Assembly (NCBI GenBank): GCA_016186915.1
Contig: JACPKU010000006.1
Span: 249,619 to 313,618 of the forward strand
Direction of reading: 5' to 3'
Length of the DNA stretch: 64,000 bases
Source of the DNA: Candidatus Doudnabacteria bacterium
Lineage (GTDB): Bacteria > Patescibacteriota > Doudnabacteria > UBA920 > O2-02-FULL-48-8
Shown: piece by piece, positions 1-49,635 of the stretch
How the letters are laid out: each line of letters starts with the position of its first letter
How positions within the stretch are numbered: the first letter of the stretch is position 1
Translations under genes and position numbers: made by a program
Notes under the pieces: generated by a model
What the model was told of the DNA's origin: nothing
The model's input: the letters and a program-made list of their open reading frames with translations, nothing else
The model's database searches: none

Positions 1-28
1 CATTCATACACGACTGTATGAATGTATT
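1..28. repeat. Palindromic repeat family A (CATTCATACA-CGAC-TGTATGAATG), solo copy at the alr stop codon
   Basis: Same sequence as 36753-36782, 37281-37310 and 49565-49596; truncated by the window start. Confidence 0.95.
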
Positions 29-1202
29 ATTTAACTAATACTCTTGGCACGGTGGGATTGATACGCGTGACAATCTCATAATTAATCGTGCCGGCGATTA
101 CGGCTAATTCATCCGCGAAAATTTCTTCACGGCCTTGTTTGCCTAAAAGCACGGCTTCACTCCCCGCTTTGGCATTTTTGACCTTGGTGACATCCGCGCT
201 TAATAAATTCATATAAACGCGCCCTCGCACTTTGCATCGTTTACCGTCGATCAACACTTCTGCCAAATTGGAAAATTTTCTGTCATAGCCCTCATAATAA
301 CCTACAGGCAAGATCGCTAATTTAGTCGGTTTGGGCGCTCTATAATTCCTGCCGTAACCAACTTACGCCCCTTTGGGAATTTCTTTGACTGCTAACACTT
401 TGGCTTTCCATGTCAATGCTGGCTGCAAATTAAATCCGGGATTGGCTTTCTGAATCAAGGAATGAATCGATTTATAAGATTGCAAGCCGTAAAGACCAAT
501 GCCGATTCTTACTAAATCGAAATGACTTTCAGGCACGGACAGCGCAGACGCGGTGCAAGCAATATGCTTAACCGGAATAAAAATCAAATTTTGTTCCAAG
601 GCTTCGATAATGCTTCGGAAATGATTGAGCTGAATGACCGTAAAAGCCGGATCGTCTTCCGAAGAAGCAAAATGACTAAATATACCTTCTATTTCCAGTT
701 GTGAAAATTTGCTGACCTGCTTCACAAATCCCACGGCGTCTTTCGCGTACACGCCCAAACGGGATAATCCCGTGCCGACTTTGATATGCACTTTGGCCTT
801 TTTCTTGAGCTTGCTGGCTGTTTCTGCAATCAACTTGGCCTGTTTGAGATCATAAACCACTAAGGCAATATGGCGCTCAATCAAAGACTTAACTTGATCT
901 GCCCTGTAGTAATTTAAAACCAAGATCGGCTTCTTAATCCCAAATTGTCGCAGCGTCAACGCTTCCGTGCCATTGGCCGTGCCGAACGAATCCACGTAAT
1001 CTTCCAAAGTCGAGCTAACTGCGAACGCGCCGTGGCCATAGGCATTGCTTTTCACCACTGCCATCAAAGAAACCCGCCCACTCTTGGTGGGCGAGGCTCG
1101 TCCCAACTTCGTTGGGGCGGCAATCAACACTTTCCGTAACTGCTTCGCGTTATGAATCAGCGCTGATTTAGAAATTTCAACCCAAGAGAGCGATGCATTC
1201 AT
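27..1202 (-). pseudogene. alr: Alanine racemase interrupted by an in-frame TAA at 363-365
   Basis: AVVKSNAYGHG PLP-lysine motif; ORFs 363..1202 and 27..311 share one frame, reading KEIPKGA*VGYGRNY...LPVGYYEGY; could be a sequencing error. Confidence 0.85.
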
Positions 1203-4146: not shown

Positions 4147-5604
4147 CTACCCCTCTTTCATTGGCGGGAAAATTACAGTCTCGCGCATTGCCTTGTTCAT
4201 GAGCACCGCAAACAGCCGCTCGCTTACCCCGAATCCCACAGCTGGTGGCATGCCATATTCCAACGCCTCGACATAATCCTCATCCATCATTTGCGCTTCC
4301 TTGTCTCCTGCTTCGCGCAGTTTCATCTGCTGCTCAAACCTGGCTTTTTGATCCAGAGGATCGTTCAATTCGGAAAATCCATTGCCCAACTCAGTGCCTG
4401 CTGCCAGAGGTTGAAAACGCAAAACTTTGTTTGAACTCTTAGGGTCGCGTTTAGCCAAAGGCGTGGTTTCAATCGGGTGTCCGACTAAGAAACAAGGCTG
4501 AATCAATTTCGGCCGCACAACTTTTTTATAAATCGCATCAATCAACTTGCCCTTGCCAAGTTTGTCAATACCGCCGATTCCTAACTCTCTTGCCTTTTTA
4601 CGAAGATCACCTTCGTCATTTTTATCTAAATCTAAACCAGTATATTTCTTAAATACTGTAAAGTATTGAAGTTTTTGCCACTTGCCGCCCCAATTAATTT
4701 TCTGCCCTTCGTATTCGGTTTCCATACTACCAATCACAGCCATCACCACTTTTTTAAATAATTTCTCCACCAACTTCATGCCATCCTGATAATCAGCGTA
4801 AGCCCAGTAAAATTCCATGTCATCATATTCTTGCAAGTGTTCGCGATCAATACCTTCGTTGCGAAACAGCCTGCCGACTTCAAAAACTTTTTCGAAACCG
4901 CCAACCAGCAATCTTTTAAGCGGCAATTCCAAAGAAATGCGCAAATAAAAATCGCGATCCAATTTATTGTGATGCGTAACAAACGGCTCCGCGTCCGCGC
5001 CTCCAGGGATGTTTTCCAAAACAGGCGTCCAGACTTCCAAGAAGCCTTGCTTGATCATGAAATTTCGGATGGTTTGCCAAAACACGGCCTTCTTTCGAAA
5101 CAACTCTTTCGTTTCCGGATTAACTAATAAATCTAAATATCGTTTGCGCAGCCTGGTTTCCACATCCTTCAAGCCAAAAAAATCCGAAGGGATGGGACGG
5201 ATAGATTTAGTGAGTAGTTTGTAGTTTGTAGTGAGTAGAGACTTTTCTCCGGAATTGGACAAACCAAGCGTACCAGTTGCCTCCAAAAAATCACCGATAT
5301 CCAACAACGACAAATTTTTATACTGGTCCGCACCCAAACCGTCTTCCTTTAAAATCAACTGGATAGCCCCGCTTTCGTCTTCCAAATTTATGAAAGCCAA
5401 CTTGCCATGTTCGCGCAGCGCCCGAATGCGCCCGACTAATGTCACGTGATCCGTGTTACGTGATCCGTGATCAAAAAGTTCTAAGGCTTGTGCAATGGCG
5501 TGCGTTCGTTCAGTCTTAACCGGATAAGGATCAACCCCTTGTTTTTTTAGTTGTCCTAATTTTTGTATCCGAACTTTCCTAAGTTCTTCTATTTTTTCTG
5601 ACAT
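4147..5604 (-). CDS. lysS: Lysyl-tRNA synthetase (class II)
   Basis: YLRISLELPLKRLLVGG, FRNEGID, ALEYGMPP motifs. Confidence 0.98.
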   Translation of the reverse strand: MSEKIEELRKVRIQKLGQLKKQGVDPYPVKTERTHAIAQALELFDHGSRNTDHVTLVGRIRALREHGKLAFINLEDESGAIQLILKEDGLGADQYKNLSLLDIGDFLEATGTLGLSNSGEKSLLTTNYKLLTKSIRPIPSDFFGLKDVETRLRKRYLDLLVNPETKELFRKKAVFWQTIRNFMIKQGFLEVWTPVLENIPGGADAEPFVTHHNKLDRDFYLRISLELPLKRLLVGGFEKVFEVGRLFRNEGIDREHLQEYDDMEFYWAYADYQDGMKLVEKLFKKVVMAVIGSMETEYEGQKINWGGKWQKLQYFTVFKKYTGLDLDKNDEGDLRKKARELGIGGIDKLGKGKLIDAIYKKVVRPKLIQPCFLVGHPIETTPLAKRDPKSSNKVLRFQPLAAGTELGNGFSELNDPLDQKARFEQQMKLREAGDKEAQMMDEDYVEALEYGMPPAVGFGVSERLFAVLMNKAMRETVIFPPMKEG

Positions 5605-5774: not shown

Positions 5775-6353
5775 CTAAACCTTTCTGAGGTTAAATTTTT
5801 CTAATAAATCCTTTTGAATATCAATGTTTTCAGCTATAATCATTCTGACAAATGATCTGACTTCATAAATCTCCTTTAAGAAATCGAGCTCGTCTTCGCA
5901 GGGATAAGGGTACACCCAAACACTCTTTTGAATGGAGGTGAATCCAAGTTCTTTCAGCTTACCTCTAAAAAATTTTCTTGCTGCGCTAAATTTCTCTGGA
6001 ACGTCAAAAATAACCACCCTCCACTTACCATCCCATCGCCTTGGCTTACTTATCACCATTTCATCTAAATTATAACTTAAAAGTCTTTGATGACCATTTT
6101 TTGTTACCTCAACTATTGTTTTTCCCGCATGATTGGACACAGAGATCAGATTCTGCTTTTCAAGATTTCGGAAAGATTGTTCAATTTGCCGGCGATTATA
6201 TTTCTTGAGTCTCTGAAATTCAAATTTACCTAAGCCAAGTTCTTCTGAAAAAATCATTACGCCTAAGGGGCCAGCAACCGGAATAGCTAACATCCCGGCC
6301 GTTGCCACTATTTTTAATATCGTCTTGGCGATTTCTGACCTTTTGGCCTTCAT
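5775..6353 (-). CDS. PaaX-like regulator: winged helix plus Cas2-like ferredoxin-fold C-terminal domain
   Basis: WDGKWRVVIFDVPE...R.KLKELGF..IQKSVWVYPY motif; paralog of 13662..14228. Confidence 0.85.
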   Translation of the reverse strand: MKAKRSEIAKTILKIVATAGMLAIPVAGPLGVMIFSEELGLGKFEFQRLKKYNRRQIEQSFRNLEKQNLISVSNHAGKTIVEVTKNGHQRLLSYNLDEMVISKPRRWDGKWRVVIFDVPEKFSAARKFFRGKLKELGFTSIQKSVWVYPYPCEDELDFLKEIYEVRSFVRMIIAENIDIQKDLLEKFNLRKV

Positions 6354-13661: not shown

Positions 13662-14228
13662 TCAAAGCTCAAATAACCTAACTAAGTCCTTTTGAATATC
13701 AATCTTTTGCACTGTCAATATTCTAATATAGGATCTCACTTCATAAAGCTCACCGATAAAATCAACTTCATCTTCACAGGAATAGGGATAAATCCAAACA
13801 CTTTTCTGCAATTTATAAAACCCTAGCTCTTTTAGTTTATTACGCAGACACTCCCTCCCCATCTTATATTTTTCGGGAATATCAAAAATTACCACACGCC
13901 ATTTACGATCCCATTTCCAGGGCTTTTTGATTCGCATGTCTTCAAGTTTGTATTTCAATACTTTATTTTGTCCGTTCTTTGTAAGTCCTACCACGGTTGT
14001 GTCACCATTTTGTGATACGCCAATCAATCTTTGCTTCTCTATTCTCCTTAAAGAATCATAGACCTTCCGTCTGCCCACTCTTGGGAGACCAAGTTCGTCG
14101 GCAATCACCATAAATGTCAATGGCCCTGCAACAGGAATTGCCAACACTCCGGCTGCGGCGAGAGTTAGCAAGACGGTTTTAGTGATCTTTAGTCTTCGTT
14201 TTGTTTTTTCAGTGTTCAATTTCTTCAT
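13662..14228 (-). CDS. PaaX-like regulator with Cas2-like domain (paralog 2)
   Basis: WDRKWRVVIFDIPE...LKELGF..LQKSVWIYPY; shares AG.LAIPVAGPL with 5775..6353. Confidence 0.85.
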   Translation of the reverse strand: MKKLNTEKTKRRLKITKTVLLTLAAAGVLAIPVAGPLTFMVIADELGLPRVGRRKVYDSLRRIEKQRLIGVSQNGDTTVVGLTKNGQNKVLKYKLEDMRIKKPWKWDRKWRVVIFDIPEKYKMGRECLRNKLKELGFYKLQKSVWIYPYSCEDEVDFIGELYEVRSYIRILTVQKIDIQKDLVRLFEL

Positions 14229-35447: not shown

Positions 35448-35453
35448 TTTTTT

Positions 35454-35483
35454 CCCTGAGCGGAGCGAAACGGAGTCGAAGGG
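35454..35483. repeat. REP-like repeat D abutting the GIY-YIG stop (CCCTGAGC...GTCGAAGGG)
   Basis: Inverted relative to 35758-35776; near-identical reverse complement at 47991-48020. Confidence 0.85.
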
Positions 35484-35750
35484 TTATTCCCATTTACCCC
35501 ACTCGCCAGTGATTAATTTTTTTTTCTTCTTTCTCGTCCAACCTTTTAATTGTTTTTCACGTAAACTTGCCTCTTCAAAACTTTCATATTCTTCTAAATA
35601 AACTAGTCGCTTTGGTTTGTGCTGTTTTGTATATTCTCCCCCTAAACCAGATATATGCTGGATCCATCTCTGATCAGGCTTCCAAGTTCTGCCAACATAA
35701 TAAGACTTGTCTTCGCATTCTATTATATACACATACCATTTCCACTTCAT
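35484..35750 (-). CDS. Small GIY-YIG nuclease (UPF0213/YhbQ-like)
   Basis: YVYII.C.D.SYYVG.T, R..QH..G, YT....P..LVY.E, REKQLKGW.R.KK. Confidence 0.92.
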   Translation of the reverse strand: MKWKWYVYIIECEDKSYYVGRTWKPDQRWIQHISGLGGEYTKQHKPKRLVYLEEYESFEEASLREKQLKGWTRKKKKKLITGEWGKWE

Positions 35751-35757
35751 ACGAAAT

Positions 35758-35776
35758 GCCTTCGACAAGCTCAGGC
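35758..35776. repeat. REP-like repeat D upstream of the GIY-YIG ATG (GCCTTCGACAAGCTCAGGC)
   Basis: 7 bp upstream of the ATG at 35750. Confidence 0.85.
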
Positions 35777-35777
35777 A

Positions 35778-35987
35778 TCAAAAGCTAAATCCTGCTCTCA
35801 TCACCTCCCAAAAACTTGGCAAATTAGTGGATTGCCCAGTCTGCTTGCATACTGCGTAAGCAATGTGATAGTTACACTCCAGATTGGTGTTCTCGGTTAT
35901 TGCCTTGATCCCACGCCAATAGAAAAAGATAAAAGCGATCAGCAGAAGCCAAATCAACCTTGTTCGATTTTTTTTACGTAGAAGCAT
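35778..35987 (-). CDS. Small single-TM hypothetical protein
   Basis: ATG start, TM helix, two Cys; fills the gap between neighbours. Confidence 0.6.
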   Translation of the reverse strand: MLLRKKNRTRLIWLLLIAFIFFYWRGIKAITENTNLECNYHIAYAVCKQTGQSTNLPSFWEVMRAGFSF

Positions 35988-35990
35988 AGG

Positions 35991-36740
35991 TTAATCTATA
36001 AATTTGAAAGTAGAAAGGATTCGGTTAATTACTTTAATATCACTATCGTTAATATCGGCGCTTATAGGGATTTGCAAACCAACTGGCGGGTACTCCTGGA
36101 CATTTTCGGTTCTTGCCTGAGCATAAAGGACACCTGAACTCGTCCATGAAGATGAAACATCATCGAATTTAATTCGATACAAGAATACTTTGCCTTCTCG
36201 GGTGGCAAATTCCTTACCATCAGTGCCAGTTCCTAATACACGAAGTGGCGGAACCTCTGCGCCTTTTGGCAGGACAAATACTTTTCCTTCCTGACCAGAA
36301 AACTCGAACACAGGATCAACCCCGCCTGAAAGTGAAGTTTTAACATTCCATCCGGCCGGATATTTTAACTCAAACCCATATTCTTCATTGCGGTAGGTTT
36401 GCCAGTTGGCAGTCTCGTCAACTTCGTCCGGCTCAATCACTTCCCAACCTTCCGGCACATCGCACGGGGTGGGGAATTCTTTTACTTCGCCAGTTTGAGG
36501 GTTGCGAGCCGGGGTAACCACCTGAATGCAGACCCCTGACATATTATTCTTATTATCCTTATCAGACCTATTATCCCTATCGTTCCTATTTTCAATCCAA
36601 TACACACCAGCCACAACCACGGCAAAGATCAACACTAAAAACACATAACCCCATATTCTATGTCTGCTAAGCCAGCTCGGCTGAGGTTCTGGTTCTTGTT
36701 GGTGATTTGTGGAGTTAAACGAATTTATATTATTTTCCAT
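35991..36740 (-). CDS. Membrane-anchored PsbP-like-domain protein
   Basis: TM, N/D/R low-complexity linker, CIQVVTPARNP.TGE...FPTPCDVPEGW module, WQTYRNEEYGFELKYP..W...ILSTFKF. Confidence 0.8.
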   Translation of the reverse strand: MENNINSFNSTNHQQEPEPQPSWLSRHRIWGYVFLVLIFAVVVAGVYWIENRNDRDNRSDKDNKNNMSGVCIQVVTPARNPQTGEVKEFPTPCDVPEGWEVIEPDEVDETANWQTYRNEEYGFELKYPAGWNVKTSLSGGVDPVFEFSGQEGKVFVLPKGAEVPPLRVLGTGTDGKEFATREGKVFLYRIKFDDVSSSWTSSGVLYAQARTENVQEYPPVGLQIPISADINDSDIKVINRILSTFKFID

Positions 36741-36752
36741 ATCCCTTTTCTC

Positions 36753-36782
36753 CACATTCATACACGACTGTATGAATGTATT
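36753..36782. repeat. Palindromic repeat A, downstream of the TrpR-like gene
   Basis: CACATTCATACACGACTGTATGAATGTATT, identical to 37281-37310. Confidence 0.97.
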
Positions 36783-37272
36783 AACCTTCTAAGGTTCTTT
36801 TTGCAGAACGTTGTTTCAGTTTCTTTCTGATAAAACGGTTTGCCGCTGGAACTCCTTCGGTGACTAAATTTGCCAAAAATGTTTCGGCCGGAGCTTTTCG
36901 GCGCACCCTTCTTTCTAAAATTGCTTGTCTTTCTTCGCGCTTCCCTTGGTATTTATGTTCCAGATCTTGTAACTTAGAGTGTACCTTTCTCAATCCATCG
37001 CCATGAATCACGAGAATATTACTGACATTATTAATAGTTCTGGAAGTAACCCTCAAAGCATTTATTATTTCTTCATAGGTTTGACCTTGAAGTAGTCGTC
37101 GCGCAATTTCTAATCTTTTAGCGAACATTTTGTATTCCGTATGTGTAAACAAATCTTTAAACAGCAACCTGATATCCTCCTTAGAATCCATCAGAGTAAA
37201 TGCGGCCCATAAATTGTTCACATAGTGACCAAAATGCTCGGGATCTAAATGTAGTCTTGAAAGTTTTGTCAT
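36781..37272 (-). CDS. TrpR/YerC-YecD-like HTH protein
   Basis: LFKDLFT.TE..M.AKRLEIARRLLQGQTYEEI...L.VTS.TI..VS; probable start MTKLSR at 37272. Confidence 0.88.
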   Translation of the reverse strand: MTKLSRLHLDPEHFGHYVNNLWAAFTLMDSKEDIRLLFKDLFTHTEYKMFAKRLEIARRLLQGQTYEEIINALRVTSRTINNVSNILVIHGDGLRKVHSKLQDLEHKYQGKREERQAILERRVRRKAPAETFLANLVTEGVPAANRFIRKKLKQRSAKRTLEG

Positions 37273-37280
37273 TTTTTTTT

Positions 37281-37310
37281 CACATTCATACACGACTGTA
37301 TGAATGTATT
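37281..37310. repeat. Palindromic repeat A, upstream of the TrpR-like gene
   Basis: 8 bp before the ATG; identical to 36753-36782. Confidence 0.97.
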
Positions 37311-37323
37311 GTATCAATAAACT

Positions 37324-38289
37324 TTACGACTTCACAAGGTTTGGCGGGGTTTGGCCTTTCAGCGCAGCGTTAATATTCTCTGCCGCCACGCGGCTCATAT
37401 TATCTCTGGTTTCAATGGTGGCGGAAGCAGTGTGCGGCGTGATGACAATGTTTTCAAGCTCTGCCAGACCCGGAGTGAGTTCTGGCTCGTGCTCCCAAAC
37501 ATCGATGCCAGCGCCGAATATATCCTGCTTCTGCAAGGCTTCCAGCAAGGCTTGTTCATCCACCACTGGACCGCGTGATGTGTTGATTAAAACAGCGGTT
37601 TTTTTCATCAGCTCGAATTGCGGCGTGGAAATCAAATGTTTAGTTTCTGGAGTCAACGGGACGTGAACGGATATAAAATCTGAAGTCTTGAGCAACTCCT
37701 CCATGCTCACGGCCCTCGCCCCTATCTCTTGATCCAAATCTTTATTTACACTGTCACGATCATAATAAACCACCTTCATCCCAAATCCTTTGCTTGCTCG
37801 CCGAGCTAAAGTGGAGCCGATTTTTCCAAGACCAATAATACCCAATGTTTTCTCGCTCACATCCTGACCCAAAAGCAGAAACGGCTGCCAGCCTTGATAC
37901 TTCCCCGCTCTAGAAAATCGGTCTGATTCTACGATCCGCCGCCCCACAGCGAGTATCAGACCAAATGCATGATCAGCCACCGAACCAGTCAGAATGTCCG
38001 GGGTATTGGTCACTAATACATTGCGAACTTGGGCGTCCTTAATATTGATATTATCAAAACCCACAGCATAGTTAGCCACGATCTTAAGCTGTTTGCCGGC
38101 CGCATCCAATATTTCACCATCAATCTGGTCCACCAGCTGCGACAATATGCCGTCTGCGCCAGCGACCGCGTCTTTCAACTCTTCCCGACTTAAGGGTCGA
38201 TCAAGAGGCGAGACTTCCACTTCGTGTCCGGCTTTTTCCAAAACATCAATTCCGATTTGGGGAATTTTACGGGTAACGTATATTTTCAA
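37324..38289 (-). CDS. D-2-hydroxyacid dehydrogenase (glyoxylate reductase/D-glycerate dehydrogenase)
   Basis: AVGFDNI, GLGKIG, INTSRGPVVDE, TPHTAS. Confidence 0.93.
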   Translation of the reverse strand: MKIYVTRKIPQIGIDVLEKAGHEVEVSPLDRPLSREELKDAVAGADGILSQLVDQIDGEILDAAGKQLKIVANYAVGFDNINIKDAQVRNVLVTNTPDILTGSVADHAFGLILAVGRRIVESDRFSRAGKYQGWQPFLLLGQDVSEKTLGIIGLGKIGSTLARRASKGFGMKVVYYDRDSVNKDLDQEIGARAVSMEELLKTSDFISVHVPLTPETKHLISTPQFELMKKTAVLINTSRGPVVDEQALLEALQKQDIFGAGIDVWEHEPELTPGLAELENIVITPHTASATIETRDNMSRVAAENINAALKGQTPPNLVKS

Positions 38290-49464: not shown

Positions 49465-49635
49465 ATCTCCTTACAACCCCCAGCGAGGGTTTTGGTTTAC
49501 CCGCCGGACTTTCGGGTGCCGATCATTCGACCGGACAAGTGTCTCGAAACGAGACTCGGACTTACATACATTCATACACGACTGTATGAATGTATGGCAA
49601 ATCCCAACCCCCATATTTGCAGGCAACACAAGCAA
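49465..49635 (-). ncRNA. Putative structured RNA containing repeat A as an internal hairpin
   Basis: TTGACA-17-TATTGT (49670-49642); closing stem GGGGGUU..UUUGCC/GGUAAA..AACCCUC; inner hairpins. Confidence 0.4.
49565..49596. repeat. Palindromic repeat A, solo copy with 14-bp perfect arms
   Basis: CATACATTCATACA-CGAC-TGTATGAATGTATG. Confidence 0.97.

Follow-up and report, generated by a model that had tools for sequence, protein, structure and literature searches.

A TrpR/YerC-fold gene between two copies of its predicted operator in a Doudnabacteria genome: a cassette whose site may be copied as a whole unit

Introduction

The locus described here raises the question why a gene for a TrpR-like protein lies between two identical palindromes, and why the same palindrome is also found without the gene. 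It is located in a stretch of 64,000 nucleotides from Candidatus Doudnabacteria bacterium, one of the tiny bacteria of groundwater (C4:249619-313618, here called the window), which belongs to a genome of 728 kb in 7 contigs (G000, here called the source genome). The original prediction, made from the letters of the window, had assumed that a conserved asymmetric loop points to something other than an operator, that the repeats propagate in one orientation through a single-stranded or replication-linked step and that excision between them would release 528 bp. We compared the palindrome, the gene and their surroundings among related genomes. Binding, tandem geometry, autorepression, copying and loss between direct repeats are inferred from evidence that is comparative throughout. 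The features of the window that are referred to below are:

1..26 (the first two bases precede the window): solo copy of the palindrome in the spacer that separates the stop of alr from the start of ddl
35991..36740, minus strand: PsbP-like surface protein, downstream neighbour, weak match to PF18933
36753..36780: downstream 28-bp site, identical to the upstream site and direct, directly after the stop codon and 12 bases ahead of the next ATG
36781..37272, minus strand: predicted DNA-binding protein of 163 aa with TrpR/YerC fold; TrpR core residues 11-90, long helix 92-120, helix 128-158
37281..37308 (30-mer to 37310): upstream 28-bp site, YAC-N5-TAC-N6-GTA-N5-GTR, predicted autoregulatory operator over the predicted transcription start
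37308..37337, minus strand: predicted sigma-70-type promoter, TTGTGA, 18 nt, extended -10 TGnTACAAT ending at 37308
37324..38289, minus strand: D-2-hydroxyacid dehydrogenase, upstream neighbour
49567..49594: solo copy in the secY/msrB spacer, arms extended to 14 bp

Copies of the palindrome in the source genome

The 30-mer CACATTCATACACGACTGTATGAATGTATT is present in identical form at 36753-36782 and 37281-37310, with a spacing of 528 bp. The first of these copies shares two bases with the TAA of the gene (36781-36783), an overlap that the original prediction had described. No match occurred in 100 shuffles. The two predicted solo copies were found at 1-26 and 49567-49594, and the TAA of the downstream alr fragment (27-29) adjoins the first of them in the same register as at the TrpR-like gene. 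A genome-wide count, which had been proposed as a check, was carried out on all 7 contigs with up to 7 mismatches. It revealed nine matches, every one on C4: seven exact 26-mers, one copy with a single mismatch, which lies in frame within a CYTH gene, and one with six mismatches. Eight near-exact copies are thus present, and exact 26-mers are expected by chance at about 6e-10 genome-wide. The information per site amounts to 51 bits, while 17.5 bits would be enough to find eight sites. The palindrome folds as a stable DNA hairpin (-9.5 kcal/mol), and an Rfam search around the solo at 49567 gave no family near the gathering threshold.

Several other repeats and bracketed genes were observed in the same genome. 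The alr gene (27-1202, minus strand) has a TAA in frame at 363-365, which divides it, and carries about 15 extra residues near its N-terminus, which look hairpin-derived. Two PaaX-like genes (5775-6353 and 13662-14228, minus strand) have a fold unlike TrpR in the same bracketed layout; identical copies of a palindromic repeat enclose the first, and related palindromes the second. A GIY-YIG gene (35484-35768, minus strand) is flanked by hairpin repeats at 35453-35501 and 35758-35782 which are common to other contigs, and a back-going joint from 35777 to 35453 with 8 letters between was seen there in all four runs. Outside the window, identical 28-bp palindromes without the TAC skeleton lie 472 bp apart around ORFs (C4:134333 and 134805, locus L113).

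The TrpR/YerC-fold protein and its predicted operator

The gene starts at ATG 37272, and an upstream TTG is not the start. The 163-aa protein matches PF01371 (E 1.4e-9, 38.3 bits against a cut-off of 27) and stays below the cut-off of the HisR/YerC equivalog family TIGR02531 (37.6 against 42.2 bits), which has a length limit under about 100 aa. Profile matches were obtained to 3FRW (E 3.2e-10), 3G1C and 3KOR. The predicted model has a pLDDT of 81, and 3FRW and 3KOR were also the top results of the fold search (best E 1.4e-3). The promoter was called by consensus match only, with three found against 1.6 expected in shuffles; the upstream site adjoins the end of its predicted extended -10 box. 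Five PF01371 genes are present in the source genome, and three of them are bracketed, each by a different site. The two further bracketed paralogues are located at C4:47418-47869 and C4:104299-104885. The site type of the first has four solos, one of them 46 bp from a copy of the 36753/37281 site; for the second no solos were found in the source genome.

Homologues in other genomes are bracketed by palindromes of their own, which have the skeleton YAC-N5-TAC-N6-GTA-N5-GTR in common. The 28-bp skeleton consists of two YAC-N14-GTR 20-mers with an offset of 8 bp. Tandem TrpR dimers are also offset by 8 bp, and the geometry of the site suits such tandem dimers, to which the TrpR structure 1TRR refers by its title. 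The 20-bp unit resembles the HisR motif cacTTTAnnnnnnTAAAgtg as given in the accessible part of PMC9413887. Close homologues are bracketed in 35 of 40 cases, the others being cut by contig ends (two) or having the downstream site only (three). The same is true for 17 of 24 more distant long forms and for none of 14 short canonical YerC genes, and brackets were also found around some short forms that lack the C-terminal helices. Among 146 genomes of the order, 100 have no homologue match at E 1e-9. Among the 46 genomes in which a homologue reaches this threshold, 41 have two or more skeleton sites, against 17 of the 100 others (hand count), and the control with the reversed pattern gave 0-1 site per genome. 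Two of these 17 genomes contain another repeat family, and three that were checked have distant bracketed homologues. Since kin are not independent, such counts overstate significance. Beyond the host order, several sites were seen in only a few of the sampled genomes of the phylum. A separate repeat family with an 8-bp period of TACGAAT units, seen in host family f4 (G052, G049, G045, G055, G041), also fits the skeleton pattern.

Co-variation between protein and site was analyzed for 43 bracketed genes, which remained from 59 loci after removal of 6 that did not align to the query, 1 duplicate and 9 without a pair. The top co-varying columns are 78, 81 and 77, with partial r values of 0.47, 0.24 and 0.20 after removal of overall identity. 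Column 78 correlates with the 6-bp centre at r 0.33, and the maximum in 500 label permutations was 0.12. Through alignment to HisR structures, these three columns correspond to Ala80, Thr83 and Ile79 of TrpR, which are among the DNA contacts of TrpR in the part of PMC9413887 that describes them. The correspondence is readable: Ser/Ala-Arg at residues 77-78 pairs with AGTCGT, His mostly with TTTCTC or TTCCCC, and Pro-Val with TATATC. Arg78 is found with AGTCGT in three host families, except after Glu or Asp. The protein tree roughly tracks the host families with weak support, and this pairing recurs in three of them; same-type sites are therefore not confined to close kin. An exact 26-mer is retained among proteins which are only 56-63% identical, which argues for strong selection on every base.

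The double 20-mer of HisR type, the adjoining -10 box and the co-variation with TrpR contact residues together indicate that the 28-bp palindrome, loop included, is very probably the cognate operator of the 163-aa protein. Most likely the protein would recognise the central 6 bp in the duplex, and binding as two tandem dimers with repression of the own promoter is likely. A conserved asymmetric loop is expected if the protein reads it. The original prediction had taken the loop as a sign of a non-operator function; instead, co-variation links these 6 bp to the recognition helix. The equivalent of Arg84 is Asn in the 163-aa protein, which is suggestive only with regard to a possible dependence on an amino-acid corepressor.

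Occurrence at gene junctions and in coding regions

The cassette of site, gene and second site occupies different junctions in related genomes. Between purF and purN of one genus it was identified in 2 of 10 genomes, and the other 8 have neither gene nor site. At the junction of the window it is present in two of six informative genomes, and four have neither gene nor site; in kin without the cassette, the PsbP-like gene directly follows the dehydrogenase gene. The empty alleles that the original prediction had suggested to look for thus exist at both places. In one operon region, cassettes occur at three different junctions, and one site type brackets genes in four contexts. Viral contigs contained no site and no homologue, and wide horizontal spread left no apparent sign, since the protein tree roughly follows the host families.

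Solo copies were observed next to many different genes. The thyA solo of the source genome fills a junction of 38 bp, which measures 1-3 bp in seven of nine relatives with the same gene order, none of them with a site. Eight family loci with alr before ddl have no site at any, and the ddl of the source genome is of another clade. Elsewhere, solos neighbour rplA, rplT, recR, purH, murI, metK, glpX and mnmA, and in-frame solos were found in prmC and in glycosyltransferases. Some genomes have solos and apparently no cassette: G116 (2 contigs, 99% complete) has three exact solos, and its only YerC is a short one without flanking sites; for the 10 sites of G031, exact solos among them, no bracketed gene was found. 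Some solos of the source genome belong to types that occur as cassettes in G012 or G006. At intervals with a G012 cassette, the source genome twice has solos of other types.

Further loci show other arrangements. In lysS, a degenerate in-frame site lies at 4646-4673; the cassette of this type is present in G012 and was not found in the source genome. At L049 (G111:C17), three tandem paralogous lipoprotein genes each have a site copy ahead of them, which resembles a cassette array. L012 (G008:C7:36362-36838) is a bracketed homologue with two internal TAA stops and looks like a decaying cassette. At G000:C5:17819-20183 (L112) and at L219, several skeleton types occupy the same spot in another hairpin repeat near groEL in the source genome and in G012.

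In tsaC, the gene of an essential enzyme, 10 of the 23 family genomes with a match have a site in frame within one loop, as nine different 28-mers. The loop exceeds its native length by 9-10 residues in three of these genomes and by 5-6 in four, has about the native length in the other three, and is native in the remaining 13. Clean insertions of about 30 bp are seen here. Five of the versions agree in 26-28 of 28 bases with the site of a bracketed gene from their own genome. The G024 copy in tsaC is identical over all 28 bases to the imperfect downstream site of the cassette and has unrelated flanks. Some arm asymmetries are common to the source genome and G007 and to the source genome and G006; they may be selected, which weakens the argument from G024. 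The tsaC tree has one starred branch of 20, so that one insertion and several are not separable. In the CYTH gene, two codon positions are occupied in 3 of 16 genomes each, and both match cassettes of G017 itself. These copies are without indels, and those in slot 1 keep a conserved Arg codon; they could fit stepwise selection from a near match.

An ordinary regulon would explain part of these findings. The protein would be an autoregulated repressor with strict tandem operators, and the solos would arise by mutation and palindrome correction and be selected for repression of neighbours or as operon roadblocks. The upstream site next to the -10 box, the HisR geometry and the indel-free CYTH sites that spare a conserved codon fit well, and so do the many junction solos which lie 7-13 bases ahead of a start codon and the cluster of two sites and one of another type at thyA. 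However, the targets are unrelated among genomes (thyA, ddl, tRNA-Arg, rplA, recR, purH, murI, metK, prmC), and judged by these neighbours, which are not conserved, the sites are not a conserved regulon of amino-acid genes. In G012, which has a 78% identical protein at the same junction, exact solos are absent and the thyA junction is empty. Nor does it fit that tsaC has clean insertions of some 30 bp, with nine versions in one slot, or that exact solos occur in genomes without the gene, and the arrival of both sites together with the gene is left unexplained. Overall, a regulon of this kind appears unlikely.

Orientation of the sites and excision

All four copies in the window read CGAC on the plus strand, as originally described; this uniform orientation has a p of 0.125 and is weak alone. 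It did not extend to the whole source genome, where AGTCGT lies on the coding strand in 6 of 8 copies (p 0.29), nor to the count across genomes, in which 23 versus 20 orientations were assigned automatically (7 without assignment) and 24 versus 19 after hand correction. G048 and G116 lean to the opposite orientation from the source genome, and at a locus upstream of rplA the loop is flipped between two relatives. Among the 43 genes, 34 flanking pairs are direct, 3 inverted and 6 uninformative. Solos match the strand orientation of the local cassette at 10 of 13 loci, which is a weak post hoc hand count. From these counts and flips, the direction looks inherited from copying and able to flip rather than required. 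Of the orientation-specific propagation that had been proposed, the signs of unit-like copying and insertion and the direct flanks (34 of 37) remain, and the fixed orientation does not. The single-stranded or replication-linked step that had been proposed with it may be involved. Random orientation of ordinary promoter-overlapping operators at conserved positions had been named as the finding that would speak against it. Orientation is indeed about even across genomes and the upstream copy is an ordinary predicted operator abutting a promoter, but the positions are not conserved.

Direct repeats also raise the possibility of site-specific recombination, in which the palindrome would be the substrate of a host Xer-like tyrosine recombinase with the TrpR-like protein as accessory, and a circle of 528 bp would be excised and integrated elsewhere. 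The site has an 11-6-11 layout with an asymmetric centre, which we take to be comparable to dif and lox. The high share of direct pairs, some flanks that look hybrid with one arm of another type, and a single Xer-like gene in the source genome and in four of five relatives would be in line with this. A search with a short dif core motif, a weak test, gave three unconvincing matches near the skew peak. The arms, however, vary with the TrpR-like helix over dozens of types and not with one recombinase, and G006 (94% complete) has 20 sites and no PF00589 match. Three inverted pairs persist, and recombination among so many direct copies in a single chromosome would remove essential DNA. The predicted excision was not borne out: no clean 528-bp deletion joint or circle was detected in the contigs of 7 runs, of which four may be the source of this DNA and which as contigs drop rare forms. 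Site-specific recombination therefore seems quite improbable. A lone joint near the repeats (36779 to 37288) was rejected as a repeat-to-repeat deletion; it occurs in one contig, with 21 letters on the short side and 25 foreign letters between. Among RNA runs, none was listed with this DNA.

Chromosomal position of the sites

None of the 8 copies in the source genome is farther than about 131 kb from the GC-skew peak (C4:168 kb). The 26 skeleton matches of this genome are restricted to C4 and C5 (1-4 matches genome-wide in the shuffle control), and C1, C2, C3, C6 and C7, which comprise 262 kb including dnaA, contain none. The clustering of sites in the terminus half of the source genome is real; the comparison of terminus confinement with other genomes includes few closed ones. 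The strand of the copies flips near the peak, at C4:177-193 kb, and beyond the skew peak this flip depends on two copies at one locus.

Such a distribution could be expected of chromosome-organising or fork-trap sites (matS, Ter or NBS-like), with C-terminal helices that bridge or tether DNA. Sites within coding regions and a gene beside its own sites would also agree with this function, and tus and rtp genes lie beside their own sites as well. Several findings speak against it. G116 has the reverse polarity, and polarity also flips within a locus; the strand flip depends on one locus; and the cassette of G048 is located 89 kb from dnaA. Moreover, only the flanking pair of this site type was found in G012, most genomes of the order (100 of 146) have no homologue match at E 1e-9, and the bracketed genes include short forms that lack the C-terminal helices. 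An organising role is therefore very improbable. A polar fork trap (Ter) in particular was rejected by the opposite leading-strand polarity in the source genome and G116, the flips in place and the position of the G048 cassette. A further possibility is that an HUH (RAYT/IS200) transposase moves the palindromes in single-stranded form, as hairpins of REP type, and that the TrpR-like gene is carried along as a passenger. This can hardly be right: the stable hairpin and the REPtron-like architecture with a palindrome-flanked gene and solos at stop codons and in genes (PMC3733652) are set against the lack of a PF01797 match in the source genome, the absence of a GTAG or CGTC tag or any common tag in the flanks of all 8 copies, and a site sequence that tracks the TrpR-like reading head.

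Proposed mechanism

The best explanation seems to be a cassette in which the operator serves autoregulation and the site is copied as an entire unit, a reading to which we incline with some reserve. Copying of the palindrome as a whole site, taken by itself, is rather probable; strict recognition alone could also keep copies identical without copying. The cassette of site, gene and site is likely to move between gene junctions and to be lost at times, leaving solos. The tightly bound protein would stall the replication fork at its own and at near-cognate sites and might keep two sites close together. Host replication or repair could then switch template and thereby transfer the cognate 28-mer, and at times the complete cassette, to the other location. 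Specificity would come from the protein and catalysis from the host; no linked catalytic partner of the cassette was found. The gene may be lost by slippage or recombination between the direct repeats, which would give a solo site, and a leftover solo could serve again as a landing slot. Repression of genes behind solos would be a by-product which differs per lineage. Covalent protein blocks were shown to stimulate template switching in E. coli (PMC6357072, accessible part). This precedent, as described there, concerns covalent crosslinks and local quasipalindromes, whereas the copying proposed here would take place between distant sites.

A step further, and only tentatively, the cassette might be a transposase-free selfish element, a possibility that we consider doubtful. 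A protein of repressor fold would drive copying of its operator and of the bracketed gene through site pairing, the host would overwrite near-cognate slots even in essential genes, and paralogues of different specificity would compete for slots. If this were true, the PaaX-like bracketed genes would have come to the same lifestyle independently within CPR genomes.

The pairs of protein and site are of interest beyond this locus. Dozens of natural pairs with a readable code of two to three residues on a TrpR fold come from a host clade (CPR) with almost no known regulators, so that E. coli could serve to test both gene control in CPR and orthogonal repressors. If copying is real, operators would be mobile units which alter a loop in an essential enzyme and rearrange possible points of control, and this would be a transposase-free route for regulon turnover and repeat spread.

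Comparison with known systems

A literature search, which did not extend to subscription journals, found no description of the bracketed layout. Highly conserved dispersed sites with a gene next to its own sites are known from Tus-Ter, RTP-Ter and MatP-matS. The cassette resembles these systems in its dispersed conserved sites, in the gene beside them and in the terminus-half clustering in the source genome; in contrast to them, polarity and position are not conserved and the system is not universal in the clade. Palindromic in-frame insertions in housekeeping genes are also shared with Rickettsia palindromic elements and other in-frame intragenic repeats, as described in the accessible part of PMC3733652. 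Here, however, they are only 28-30 bp long, are tied to a cognate predicted DNA-binding protein and are exchanged as different versions at one slot.

REP/RAYT REPtrons and TIRtrons, according to the available text of the same source (PMC3733652), have in common with the cassette a gene with cognate flanking palindromes, family-specific sequences, dispersed copies at stop codons or in ORFs and a patchy distribution. The flanked gene here encodes a non-catalytic repressor fold (PF01371 only) and not an HUH transposase. The flanks are single direct copies, the GTAG/CGTC tag is absent, and no Y1 transposase was found in the source genome.

With HisR (B. subtilis YerC) and E. coli TrpR (PF01371; 3FRW, 3G1C, 3KOR, 1TRR), the 163-aa protein shares the fold, the DNA-contact positions, the 20-bp unit, the predicted autoregulation and the probable tandem binding, as far as these are covered by the sources available in part. 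It differs by about 65 extra C-terminal residues. The residues of the reading head vary here and are fixed there, and the equivalent of Arg84 is Arg in just 24 of 76 homologues. Sites lie on both sides of the gene, and several bracketed paralogues per genome each have their own site. A his or trp regulon is absent here, and sites lie in frame in genes and persist without the gene. Judged by analogy with these partly available descriptions, the cassette would work like a TrpR/HisR pair in its recognition and like a REPtron in its architecture.
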